This document shows, piece after piece, positions 12,547 through 33,457 of a stretch of 64,000 nt of DNA. The notes under the pieces are model-generated. The model saw only the letters and a list, made by a program, of their open reading frames with translations, was not told where the DNA came from and did not search any database. Location of the stretch: the IMG/VR virus record IMGVR_UViG_3300045988_161152. One strand, given 5' to 3'. Numbering within the stretch: the first letter of the stretch is position 1; each line of letters starts with the position of its first letter. A program made the position numbers and the translations under genes. Source of the stretch: a virus. Lineage: Duplodnaviria > Heunggongvirae > Uroviricota > Caudoviricetes.

Positions 12547-12792
12547 TTGGCAGAACGTGTTGATGATGCAGAGCTGAGCATGAATCAGTTAGAAGCTCTC
12601 AAAGACATGGCCATCGATAACATCAGAAAGCAGGCACAGGTCGTGAGCCAGGTATTTACAGGGAAGTGTCGTTACTGCAATGAATCGATTGAATCAGGCA
12701 TTTATTGTGACGCTGAATGTGCGCAATGGCACAGGGAAGAGCAGGCCGCAAAACAGCGTAAATATGGCATGCGACCGGCAGGATTTGACTGA
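12547..12792 (+). CDS. Small zinc-ribbon protein (TraR/DksA-like C4 motif)
   Basis: 81 aa from a TTG start with GAGGA RBS; CRYC...CDAEC cysteine pairs. Confidence 0.45.
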   Translation: MAERVDDAELSMNQLEALKDMAIDNIRKQAQVVSQVFTGKCRYCNESIESGIYCDAECAQWHREEQAAKQRKYGMRPAGFD

Positions 12793-12794
12793 TT

Positions 12795-13373
12795 ATGTTG
12801 CGCTTTACTGAGGAAGAGTTTCAGGCTTTTAGTGAGCGTCGAAATAAGGGGCGGTCCAGGCCAAAAACCAAAAAGGATCCATTCTTATCGCTTGCGCCGG
12901 TAAAAGAAGTTTCTCCACATGCGAAGGCACTTGCAGCACTTGCAAAGAACCCAGACCTGCGCGACGGAAATTGCGAGCACTTCGAGCAGGTTTTCATTTT
13001 TGATTACTTCGAACGCAAGCACCCTGACATCTATGAGCTGTTGCATGCAACGCCTAACGGAGGGAAGCGTTCAAAAGCAACCGCCGGGAAAATGAAGGCT
13101 GAAGGGCAGAAAAAAGGTTATCCGGACATGAGTCTCGATAAAGCATGCGGTATTTATCACGGCATGCGAATTGAGCTTAAAGAACCAAATGGTAAAGCCC
13201 CGACGAAAGAGCAGATCGCCTGGATGCGCAGGCTTAGAGAGGAAGGCTACTACGTTGTTCTTGCGTATGGTGCAGAACAAGCGATTACCGCCATCCTGGA
13301 ATACATAAGTCTTAAAAAGGGTGAGGCTATTGAGCATGTATTGAACGGCGATAAGTGGTTGCATGCTGCTTAA
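12795..13373 (+). CDS. VRR-NUC family PD-(D/E)xK nuclease-like protein
   Basis: 192 aa; GYPDMSLDKACGIYHGMRIELK (PD...ExK) followed by a Q..W...L...G block. Confidence 0.5.
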   Translation: MLRFTEEEFQAFSERRNKGRSRPKTKKDPFLSLAPVKEVSPHAKALAALAKNPDLRDGNCEHFEQVFIFDYFERKHPDIYELLHATPNGGKRSKATAGKMKAEGQKKGYPDMSLDKACGIYHGMRIELKEPNGKAPTKEQIAWMRRLREEGYYVVLAYGAEQAITAILEYISLKKGEAIEHVLNGDKWLHAA

Positions 13374-13439
13374 AATAATAAATTAATTAGTGCATGTACG
13401 CTCTTTGTGGTAGTGCACTTTAACATCGGGAGAATAATC

Positions 13440-13595
13440 GTGTCATCCAAGGTTAATTATGAGTCGCTGGCATCGGTCATGCCGCGTAATGAACAGGAAA
13501 CAGATGCTGTAGTGGACCCTGTAATCGCTGAAATGAATGCTCGCCTGGAGGCTGAATTTGCAGCTGAGAATGAACATACCACCCAGGGCGACTAG
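13440..13595 (+). CDS. Small acidic hypothetical protein
   Basis: 51 aa from a GTG start with GGGAGA RBS; ORF track gives 13407-13595; overlaps the next gene start. Confidence 0.3.
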   Translation: MSSKVNYESLASVMPRNEQETDAVVDPVIAEMNARLEAEFAAENEHTTQGD

Positions 13596-14199
13596 GACTG
13601 TTTTTTGTGTCGGTAGCGGTCCGTCACTCACTCGTGAGGACTGTGCTGCTATAGAAAAAACTGGCTGTTCAATCATCGCGGTTAACAATTCCTGGCAGAT
13701 GTTCGATGACATTTATGCCTTATACGCCGGTGATTTGTCATGGTGGAAGCAATACGGATCCACCATACCGGGAGGGAGATTCCGCAAAGTGACAGCCAAC
13801 CTGGCGGCGGCGAAATCATTTTCGTTGGAGTACAGGCGATATTGTGGACCGGCGGAAGGGGTAAATAGCGGCGCGCAGGCTATCAGTCTGGCTGCTGAAT
13901 CAGGGGCTGAAGTAGTGGTATTAGTCGGCTATGACTGTTCTCTGCAAAACGGCCTTCATTGGCATGGCGCGCACCCTCAAGCACTACGGAATCCAACGCA
14001 GGTGTCTATTTCAAAATGGCAACAGCAGTTCCTGGATACCCGCAAAAAACACGCAGATTTACATATTTTGAATGCAAGTAGGAGCAGTGCAATTCAATGT
14101 TTCCCAAGAATAAATTTAGAGGCAGTGATCGCGTTATTATCGTCGGCAGTGGCCCAAGCGCCGCAAACTTTGTTGCGCCGCGCGGAGTGCCGATTATAG
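13570..14199 (+). CDS. GxGPS-motif Rossmann-like protein, paralogue 1 (DUF115/GT42-like by motif)
   Basis: VFCVGSGPSL...IIAVNN...VVLVGYD; start set at ATG 13570 so the GSGPS motif sits at the same distance from the N-terminus as in paralogue 2. Confidence 0.5.
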   Translation: MNIPPRATRTVFCVGSGPSLTREDCAAIEKTGCSIIAVNNSWQMFDDIYALYAGDLSWWKQYGSTIPGGRFRKVTANLAAAKSFSLEYRRYCGPAEGVNSGAQAISLAAESGAEVVVLVGYDCSLQNGLHWHGAHPQALRNPTQVSISKWQQQFLDTRKKHADLHILNASRSSAIQCFPRINLEAVIALLSSAVAQAPQTLLRRAECRL

Positions 14200-14723
14200 C
14201 GGTCAATGGGGCCATCGACTGGCTTAACCGCGCTTCTTATTTTTTCACCCTTGATCCATCCCCAGACAATATGCGGCGCGTTGGTCGTGGCCGCCGTCGC
14301 CGTGGTGTTTGTTATTGCATGGCACTACCCGATGTTAAAGAACGTGAAGTCAGAGATGGCGTTCTGTGCTTCCGTCGTGTGGCTGAACGCGGCATGGAGC
14401 CAAAAAATACGAATTCTCCCGAGTGGTGGGCGTGGCGCTGGTCCGCACATTTCGGCCTTTGCGAAGATGAGAATGAAATTGCCAGCGGCAATAGTGCATA
14501 TGGTGCTCTGAACCTGGCTTTCCATATCGGATTCAAACATGTAGCTCTGGTGGGCGTTGACGCTACGCAAGAACTACGCGTTCACTCCGGCGGCACGCCA
14601 AAAAATCTAAGTCACCTGCCTTTGTTATTCCAGTCTGCGCGTGAACAGATTGACGTTGTTTCATGCGGGAAAATGGGAGGTATTCCGCAGATGACTCTTA
14701 AAGAATGGCTGAAGAATACATGA
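14097..14723 (+). CDS. GxGPS-motif Rossmann-like protein, paralogue 2
   Basis: 208 aa; [10 protein letters not shown]...IIAVNG...VALVGVD; overlaps paralogue 1 by 103 nt in another frame. Confidence 0.5.
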
Positions 14724-15397
14724 TGGCACCCACAATTTATCACCGTATCGACGGTACCAAATACAGGAATGTCTGGGTTGTTGGTGATCTGCATGGTTGC
14801 TACACCAGACTGATGTCCGAACTCCATCGTGTGGATTTTGACCCGGCGCAGGATTTACTGATATCGGTCGGCGACCTTATCGATCGCGGTACTGAAAATG
14901 TCGAATGTCTGGAACTATTGCAGATGCCCTGGTTCAGGGCAGTGATGGGGAACCATGAGCGGCTGATGATTGATGCGTTAAGTCCAGATGGCAACGTGAA
15001 TAACTGGCTAATGAATGGCGGACAATGGTTCTTCATGCTGGACACTGATCAGGAAATATTAGCCTGGGCGCTGGTGGAGCTGGTAAAGCGTCTGCCCTAT
15101 ATCATTGAGCTGAACACCGGGCAAGAAACTATCGTTATAGCCCATGCCGACTATCCGGATAATGAATACCAATTCGGTAAGGAGGTACCGCTTTTCAACG
15201 TTGTCTGGGCGCGCGAGCGTATCAGTGATTCGATGGATGATATTGGTGGCGAAATTTCGGGCGCAGATCGTTTTATCTTTGGCCACACTCCGGTGAAAAG
15301 CCCGAAGACATTCTGGAATCAGCAGTATATCGACACTGGTGCCGTATTTTGCGGAAACCTGACATTGATGAAAGTGAAAGGTGATGGTGCAGCATGA
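14705..15397 (+). CDS. ppp: Ser/Thr protein phosphatase (lambda-PP family metallophosphatase)
   Basis: GDLHG, GDLIDRG and GNHE metallophosphatase motifs; N-terminus resembles lambda PP; true start may be ATG 14723. Confidence 0.8.
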
Positions 15398-16095
15398 AGA
15401 TTGCTTTAGTTTTTCGCTCTGGTGGTGACTATAACGCTTCCGATGTGCAGTGGCTGGTTAATCAACTGCCAAAAGGCTATGAAATTATTTGCCTGACAGA
15501 CCTGAAGCGTTTACATGTACCTGGCGTCAAAGTTGTCCCATTGATCAACCAGTGGCAAAAGTGCCGTGGCTGGTGGGCGAAAATCGAGTTGTTCCGACCG
15601 GATATAACCGATGATCTGTTCTATCTGGATTTGGACACGGTTATTGCCGGTGATATACGCCCAATCCTAGAGCATCCACCAACCAGCTTCACCATGCTTA
15701 GGGATTTTTACCATCCACAATATCGTGGCAGCGGTGCCCTGTGGATACCAAATAGTGTTAAAGCGCATATCTGGAGTTCATTCTGGCAAGATCCGGAAGG
15801 TTGGATTTCTCGTTGTGTCACTACTGAGTGCTGGGGTGACCAGGGGTTCTTACGAAAGGTTATGGGCGATGATACACCAGCATTTCAGGATCTGTATCCA
15901 GGATGGTTTGTAAGTTACAAGGCCGATGTTGTGGAACCTGGTTCAAAATATGCGAGCGCGCGTTACTCCAGGGGGAATGGGGCATTACCAAAAGACTGCC
16001 GAATAATCTTTTTCCACGGCAAACCGCGACCTCGCGAAGTGTCAGAGGATTGGCTTCCCCTTATCAGCTCATTTTTTGAGCGAGAATCAGAATAA
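15394..16095 (+). CDS. Glycosyltransferase-like protein (GT-A type, DxD motif)
   Basis: 233 aa; [12 protein letters not shown] DxD signature; ATG overlaps ppp stop (ATGA). Confidence 0.45.
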
Positions 16096-16096
16096 T

Positions 16097-16113
16097 ATTG
16101 CTCTAATAATTCC
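16097..16113. promoter_or_regulatory. C1 operator
   Basis: ATTGCTCTAATAATTCC (14 of 17 consensus positions) starting 2 nt after the stop codon at 16093-16095. Confidence 0.5.
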
Positions 16114-16120
16114 ATATTTT

Positions 16121-16151
16121 TAAAACGTGATGTACACTCATCACGTTTTTT
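16121..16151. terminator. Bidirectional rho-independent terminator
   Basis: AAAACGTGATG-TACACT-CATCACGTTTTTT: 8-bp stem flanked by an A-run and a T-run. Confidence 0.55.
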
Positions 16152-16162
16152 ATTAGAGCAAT
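16146..16162. promoter_or_regulatory. C1 operator (inverted orientation)
   Basis: TTTTTTATTAGAGCAAT is the reverse complement of ATTGCTCTAATAAAAAA. Confidence 0.5.
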
Positions 16163-33119: not shown

Positions 33120-33358
33120 AATTATGCCTCACTGTATTGACAACACAGAGCCTGAAGCTCTGACCTACTGTTTCACCCATGATCCATGCTGGGGTAATCT
33201 AACAACATTGCGCTGTGTGTAAGATGAGCAATGCATAGCTGTAATGCCGTTGTATAAGGTTTCCCTGTTTGCTCATTTCCTTCTGAGCCGCTCTACAACG
33301 CTGAAGACACATTAAATAGTGAATCCAAAGTCGTATTACGAAACGGCGGCAAAACTAT

Positions 33359-33374
33359 AATTTATTAGAGCAAT
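33359..33374. promoter_or_regulatory. C1 operator
   Basis: AATTTATTAGAGCAAT, perfect reverse complement of ATTGCTCTAATAAATT. Confidence 0.65.
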
Positions 33375-33440
33375 TGTCAAACAACAATGAAAAACAATCC
33401 AGTTTTTGGCTGGTGGAGTGGGATTTTTCTCTCAAAATTT

Positions 33441-33457
33441 ATTGCTCTAATAATTCT
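33441..33457. promoter_or_regulatory. C1 operator
   Basis: ATTGCTCTAATAATTCT with overlapping AAATTTATT. Confidence 0.55.

Follow-up and report, generated by a model that had tools for sequence, protein, structure and literature searches.

T4 endonuclease VII, T7 endonuclease I, lambda Rap and RusA are phage nucleases that clear branches from phage DNA before packaging, and mutants in T4 gp49 and T7 gp3 have clear packaging defects. Among the VRR-NUC proteins, three stand-alone Holliday-junction resolvases have been crystallized, namely psNUC of Psychrobacter (4QBL), stNUC (4QBO) and saNUC (4QBN), and all three are dimers that cleave Holliday junctions symmetrically (Pennell 2014, PMC4103454). 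In FAN1, which cuts 5' flaps, a helical insertion keeps the protein monomeric, and a Gln conserved among VRR-NUC proteins contacts the catalytic Lys (Pennell 2014, PMC4103454). One subfamily of VRR-Nuc, the “PmgM subfamily” defined by Iyer, Babu and Aravind (2006, as cited in PMC9635880), is named for PmgM of phage P1, so that the nuclease identity of this protein is already published. Small zinc-finger proteins of mobile elements form a second point of comparison. TraR of the F plasmid, Orf73 of lambda and Orf82 of P2 are regulators that act by way of RNA polymerase's secondary channel. The DxxDxA helix of TraR reaches the active site of the enzyme (PMC9239242).

Here we describe a pair of adjacent genes, one encoding a VRR-NUC-like protein and the other a small zinc-finger protein, in a 64,000-nucleotide stretch of viral DNA from IMG/VR, the whole of which is referred to below as the window.

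Identity and Layout of the Locus

The two genes are pmgL and pmgM of a P1-like phage. Window positions 12400-13450 align without gaps to positions 78455-79505 of phage P1 (AF234172), with seven substitutions in 1051 bases, and a megablast search with the same interval matched 19 phage records, every one of which is P1-like. The closest is the P1-like phage-plasmid JL22 (99.8% identity), slightly above reference P1 (99.3%), followed by SJ46 (98.3%), RCS47 (97.3%) and P7 (96.9%). PmgL is identical to the P1 protein, and PmgM agrees with it at 191 of 192 residues, the sole change being H190Y. While pmgM carries six substitutions relative to P1, five of them are synonymous, which is the pattern expected of a real coding sequence. 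P1 PmgM (AAQ14056; Upf81.2 in P7) is the product of the same gene, with the same neighbors and operators, and we transferred the P1 features to the window by the ungapped alignment (window coordinate = locus coordinate + 8899; Table 1).

Table 1. Features of the pmgL-pmgM locus, in window coordinates.
Feature	Position	Strand	Source and remarks
Late (Lpa-dependent) promoter LPpmgL	12440-12458	+	P1 annotation, transferred by alignment
Predicted sigma-70 promoter P2pmgL	12450-12477	+	P1 annotation; -10 overlapped by the operator
C1 operator O26 (former Op82), ATTGCACTAATAATTTT	12473-12489	-	P1 annotation as C1 binding site; identical in P1
Predicted sigma-70 promoter P1pmgL	12483-12510	+	P1 annotation; -35 overlapped by the operator
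pmgL	12547-12792	+	81 aa, TTG start; open reading frame list and P1 annotation
pmgM	12795-13373	+	192 aa; open reading frame list and P1 annotation
C1 operator Oppp (former Op83), CATGCACTAATTAATTT	13380-13396	-	P1 annotation; identical in the window; between pmgM and pmgN
pmgN, pmgO, pmgP, ppp, pmgQ	13407-16095	+	Downstream, same transcription block; same early kinetics

Both open reading frames that the initial annotation had described, the shorter one with its TTG start, are present where they had been placed. A Shine-Dalgarno sequence (GAGGA) lies 7 nt 5' of the TTG, and a 53%-identical PmgL homologue has an ATG start at the same alignment column. The ATG of pmgM begins 2 nt past the pmgL stop (TGAttATG). 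Both genes are already catalogued in P1, where their annotation dates back to the genome paper; the locus is an ordinary one, and there is nothing new in the pair. We consider it probable, taking the explanation as a whole, that the locus is the start of a C1-regulated block that encodes a junction resolvase, PmgM, and a TraR-like accessory protein, PmgL. The locus would then form the head of the pmgL-pmgQ transcription block in a P1-type phage-plasmid.

Many pmgL variants in the protein database (P0113-P0138) are frameshifted at several positions into the +1 frame (window 12547-12811) and end in ...DRQDLTDYVALY, overlapping the start of pmgM. These entries suggested pseudogenization of pmgL, an idea that we rejected, as the gene is intact in 79 of 80 P1-like IMG/VR loci and frameshifted in the remaining one. 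The frameshifted variants are a minority and reflect either sequencing errors or sporadic decay. A second set of irregular entries consists of “PmgM” proteins of 266 aa, found in some P1-like assemblies, in which the pmgM stop reads Leu (seven member sequences). We considered these as PmgL-PmgM fusions and rejected this; they are read-through fusions of PmgM and PmgN. The long form of pmgN, starting at the GTG at 13407, is in the same frame as pmgM and separated from it only by the pmgM TAA (window 13371-13595; P0001, P0003).

C1 Control and Timing of Expression

An operator variant had been noted upstream of the two genes, which had in turn been described as C1-controlled, and both statements are borne out. 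The coordinates noted for it coincide exactly with those of Op82/O26, annotated as a monovalent C1 operator, which overlaps the predicted promoters P1pmgL and P2pmgL. Read on the minus strand, it differs at two positions from the 17-bp asymmetric C1 consensus, ATTGCTCTAATAAATTT. A scan with this consensus, at a threshold of three or fewer mismatches, returned 14 matches in the window, compared with 0.24 expected from shuffled sequences. Oppp was missed by the scan because it has four mismatches to the consensus. The 13 further C1-operator-like sites, some of them overlapping or closely paired, include those at 2414-2441, 16097-16162 and 33358-33457, and they fit a window that covers much of a P1-type genome.

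The two annotated sigma-70 promoters of pmgL were not recovered by a simple sigma-70 consensus scan, which indicates that they are weak matches to the consensus, and they are still predictions. According to the P1 annotation, the -22 element of LPpmgL (12440-12448) is common to LP26, the divergent late promoter of gene 26. In a lysogen, C1 repressor bound to Op82 would block the sigma-70 promoters. Upon infection or induction, the block would be transcribed early and then still be transcribed late, with the help of the Lpa-type late promoter.

Published RNA-seq data for P1vir (Table S1 of PMC8201110) give, in the wild type at 10 min, log fold changes of 6.99 for pmgL and 7.98 for pmgM, with 3.6 and 3.4 for the adjoining late genes 25 and 26. 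From the same table we computed a 10-min mean of 8.23 (range 6.6-10.0) for ten classical early genes and of 3.87 (sd 0.66) for twenty structural or late genes. At this time point pmgL and pmgM fall within the early range and 4.7-6.2 sd above the late genes. By 30 min their values were 11.0 and 11.95 (PMC8201110), a rise consistent with LPpmgL as a further, late promoter. The description of the two genes as an early pair is thus supported by the 10-min data insofar as it says early, but exclusively early it is not, given the annotated LPpmgL and the levels at 30 min; pmgL and pmgM are expressed early and late as well.

When pmgL was knocked down by CRISPRi the plating efficiency was 1.3, and when pmgM was knocked down it was 0.38; both genes were scored non-essential. 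The CRISPRi table lists them as non-essential in the Gonzales knockout library, too. The main text of Gonzales 2022 reports that 24 of 29 single-gene knockouts had no plaquing defect, with pmgL and pmgM unnamed there, and that knockouts without a plaquing defect were also unchanged in antirestriction activity.

PmgM as a Predicted VRR-NUC Nuclease

The VRR-NUC signature that the initial annotation had read in the 192-aa protein is confirmed by homology to a crystallized resolvase, by the predicted fold and by the catalytic residues. PmgM carries the motifs GYPD(111)MSLDK and IE(127)LK(129), and its VRR-NUC (PD-(D/E)xK) domain extends over residues 58-175 approximately, with E61, D111, E127, K129 and Q140 as the catalytic residues. 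The Pfam profile VRR_NUC (PF08774) does match PmgM (E 3e-4), over profile positions 55-115 only, but at 21.3 bits the match falls below the gathering score of 23.8. A phmmer search of PDB sequences gave stronger evidence, aligning PmgM residues 77-180 with 4QBL (E 3.5e-17, 66 bits) with a single indel, a 10-residue deletion, and no insertion in PmgM. In addition, the PHROG_5702 family, “Holliday junction resolvase,” matches PmgM at 4.8e-27. A search of NCBIfam gave no match for either PmgM or PmgL.

We retrieved 103 PmgM homologues from a large protein collection, many of which are named VRR-NUC or carry a precomputed PF08774 match. In an alignment of 42 sequences, at least 90% share E61, H62, Q65, TPNGG (86-90), AEG (102-104), D111, E127, K129 and Q140. 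Among these positions are the catalytic residues of the PD-(D/E)xK type and the Gln specific to VRR-NUC proteins, with Q140 aligned to a Gln of psNUC. The AlphaFold2 model of PmgM (pLDDT 88.3) has helices at residues 60-75, 138-149 and 160-171 and strands at 83-85, 112-114, 124-129 and 153-158. A Foldseek search with this model places the three VRR-NUC crystal structures at the top, with 4QBL as the best match (E 2.5e-10, TM 0.83, rmsd 2.3 A over 125 columns), followed by 4QBN and 4QBO and then by RecU, FAN1 and Hjc. Judged by homology to a solved structure, predicted fold and catalytic residues, PmgM is a genuine VRR-NUC nuclease. Our literature search for a biochemical assay of PmgM found none.

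Residues 1-57 of PmgM constitute an extension that is conserved in the subfamily and comprises two helices joined by a basic linker. This extension could alter specificity or recruit a partner.

Likely Activity of PmgM

Like PmgM, psNUC has the E/D/ExK/Q residues, the catalytic core and the fold, and the stand-alone resolvases stNUC and saNUC have a similar fold. PmgM differs from psNUC (about 30% identity) in its 57-residue N-terminal extension and in a linker between beta1 and beta2 that is 10 residues shorter. Whereas the helical insertion of FAN1 blocks dimerization, PmgM has no insertion relative to psNUC. PmgM is a stand-alone protein of the PmgM subfamily. Going by its homology to psNUC, it would most likely be homodimeric, bind four-way (Holliday) junctions and, with Mg2+, cut them symmetrically. 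Against such a specificity stands the preference of other VRR-Nuc proteins for 5' flaps (FAN1) or splayed arms (TseV3; PMC9635880). PmgM would resolve the recombination and replication branches of the P1 concatemer ahead of headful packaging. Host RuvC would do the same work, and this redundancy would account for the dispensability of pmgM in the laboratory. We infer dimerization, junction specificity and the packaging-related role from a homologue of roughly 30% identity.

The role proposed for PmgM would resemble that of the four phage nucleases named at the outset, which take branches out of replicating or recombining phage DNA. PmgM belongs to a different protein family from these nucleases, although T7 endonuclease I is distantly related within the PD-(D/E)xK group, and pmgM is dispensable in P1, in contrast to T4 gp49 and T7 gp3.

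The initial annotation had also raised the possibility that the nuclease targets host DNA or defense intermediates, for which we found no support. PmgM would in that case be an offensive or counter-defense enzyme that degrades host DNA or cleaves branched intermediates of defense systems. Its early expression would suit such a function, and there is a precedent in the T6SS effectors TseV2 and TseV3, toxic structure-specific VRR-Nuc proteins that make double-strand breaks (PMC9635880). However, in the published tree the PmgM clade, whose members are encoded among DNA-metabolism genes, stands apart from the toxic TseV/Plu1493-like clade (Hespanhol 2022, PMC9635880). Moreover, no immunity-type gene lies next to pmgM, the nearest structure is that of a canonical junction resolvase, and antirestriction was unchanged in the knockouts without plaquing defect that Gonzales 2022 reports. 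We regard an offensive function as highly improbable and retain that of a junction resolvase.

Association of pmgL and pmgM

Relatives in which PmgL shares 46-53% identity retain the gene order pmgL-pmgM-pmgN-pmgO/P-ppp-pmgQ, and there, too, the equivalent block is headed by C1-type operators. In four of the relatives (L082, L085, L088 and L089), the pmgM block lies directly 3' of a darB-like gene and two conserved small genes. The darB-like gene encodes a protein of about 2250-2280 aa with N6-methyltransferase and helicase parts. As the block adjoins tail genes in P1 and a darB-like gene in these relatives, the Op82 region marks a mosaic boundary.

The close spacing of the two genes raises the question of whether their products work together, with PmgL as the DNA-binding or regulatory subunit of a two-subunit nuclease. 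Such an enzyme would make sense of a spacing of 2 nt from the pmgL stop to the pmgM start and of possible translational coupling, and relatives whose PmgL is 46-62% identical do keep the two genes together. PmgM homologues of about 50% identity in other 80-kb phage-plasmids, however, have no zinc-finger gene upstream. Distant members of the PmgL family, for their part, occur in other phage contexts, beside a dUTPase fragment or a holin; their contigs show no VRR-NUC gene but, at 0.5-1.4 kb, are too short to say much. In addition, the crystallized VRR-NUC resolvases are homodimers without a partner (PMC4103454), and the detectable homology of PmgL is to an RNA-polymerase-binding protein, TraR. 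The nuclease gene is thus the more widely kept of the two and pmgL a lineage-specific add-on, which counts against an obligate complex. We rejected the obligate two-subunit enzyme on the basis of the pmgM homologues that lack a zinc-finger gene on their 5' side, and we consider a two-subunit enzyme of any kind very unlikely. PmgL would instead be a separate accessory protein and not a subunit of the nuclease.

PmgL and the TraR Family

PmgL has four cysteines in the arrangement C41-x2-C44-x9-C54-x3-C58, and in its AlphaFold2 model (pLDDT 77.7) a helix at residues 7-32 is followed by a zinc knuckle formed by these cysteines and a helix at 56-73, an arrangement that TraR also has. The initial annotation had called it a C4 zinc-ribbon protein; more precisely, it is a small TraR/DksA-like protein whose finger is atypical.

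When 1.84 billion representative proteins were searched exhaustively with HMMER, only 29 matched PmgL. The full-length ones are 67-91 aa long and share an N-terminal MxDxxDxA motif, TGxCxYC and (Y/F)CDxxC, with D6, G39 and the four cysteines invariant. In a comparison of the family profile with the PDB, the best match is TraR (E 0.0043), and hhalign aligns PmgL 4-49 with TraR 1-45 (93.2%, E 2.9e-7). This match is confined to the N-terminal helix and the first CxxC, where the alignment ends. PHROG_54, “DksA-like zinc-finger protein,” also matches PmgL (1.6e-12). Other searches were negative: at E up to 1, neither PmgL nor any of the 22 family members matches the Pfam family zf-dskA_traR (PF01258), a Foldseek search with the predicted PmgL structure gives nothing significant (DksA only at E 6.5), and phmmer with PmgL alone against PDB sequences gives only chance matches to PHD fingers.

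PmgL (81 aa) and TraR (73 aa) are of similar size and have an N-terminal helix with an acidic motif, which in PmgL approximates DxxDxA, then I..IR.K, a CxxC knuckle and, toward the C-terminus, another helix, and the proteins of the TraR group are, like PmgL, accessory and non-essential phage or plasmid proteins. The fingers differ, CxxC-x9-CxxxC in PmgL versus CxxC-x17-CxxC in TraR, with the second half of the PmgL finger shorter and of a different type. The motif of P1 PmgL itself is D6-D-A-E9-L-S11 (DxxExS), with five residues before the first Asp versus two in TraR. Deviations of this kind were associated with weaker activity in the TraR study (PMC9239242). On sequence grounds, we tentatively regard the N-terminal helix and first CxxC of PmgL as homologous to those of TraR.

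PmgL could also be a generic treble-clef zinc finger with another target, either DNA or a host enzyme such as gyrase (compare YacG), with a likeness to TraR that amounts to an acidic amphipathic helix only. The CxxC-x9-CxxxC spacing and the (Y/F)CDxxC motif do resemble those of treble-clef fingers, and there are weak Pfam matches to VATC, DUF2116 and MYND. Foldseek superposes 37 residues of YacG with an rmsd of 1.8 A, at a non-significant E of 4.2, and the alignment with TraR ends past the first CxxC. On the other hand, the MxDxxDxA motif of the family is as far from the N-terminus as that of TraR, the I-x-x-IR-x-K/Q match with TraR follows it, and PHROGs places the family among the DksA-like proteins. 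A generic treble-clef finger is accordingly possible but, in our assessment, doubtful.

Because the N-terminal helix and first knuckle appear homologous to those of TraR, PmgL would most likely be an RNA-polymerase binder. It would bind the secondary channel and modulate host transcription early in infection. That PmgL works like TraR is reasonable but unproven, and we offer it as a lead, not as an assignment to the canonical family. A more specific version, in which PmgL represents an unrecognized branch of the TraR family that kept the helix, swapped in a short finger of the treble-clef type and reprograms host transcription early, we put forward as a speculative and on balance unlikely proposal. 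P1vir develops better in DksA-deficient hosts (PMC8201110), and a TraR-like PmgL of this kind could bear on that observation.

Neighboring Genes

Several genes around the pair have features of their own. For example, pmgN (window 13407-13595) is recorded in P1 as encoding 51 aa, while the GTG-started open reading frame encodes 62 aa. Positions 2-62 of these 62 match PHROG_2350 (E 1e-45), and this full-length match suggests that the 62-aa form may be the genuine product. The gene is essential according to CRISPRi and non-essential according to deletion.

PmgO and PmgP (window 13537-14723) are encoded by overlapping genes, are paralogues and have sub-threshold MptE-like Pfam matches. PmgO also matches PHROG_4603, “alpha-2,3-sialyltransferase,” at 4.4e-74. 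From their sequences, both look more like enzymes than like “morphogenetic” proteins.

On the other side of the pair, gp25 (“tail stability”; gene 25, window 10796-12013, minus strand) contains a CxC...CxH pattern (CDCGRHQYW...ACKHVLHAM) that is similar to a SWIM zinc finger. The pattern gave no Pfam match at E up to 0.1.

Implications for P1 Biology

The importance of these results is small and consists mainly of tidying annotation. The label “putative morphogenetic function” is misleading for both pmgL and pmgM. For pmgM, a better label would be predicted VRR-NUC Holliday-junction resolvase, which RefSeq already uses for P1 and P7, and for pmgL it would be TraR/DksA-like zinc-finger protein. 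If PmgL does bind RNA polymerase, the known sequence range of TraR-type regulators would be widened. If the resolvase role of PmgM is true, it would fill in the debranching of P1 concatemers before headful packaging and would bear on generalized transduction.
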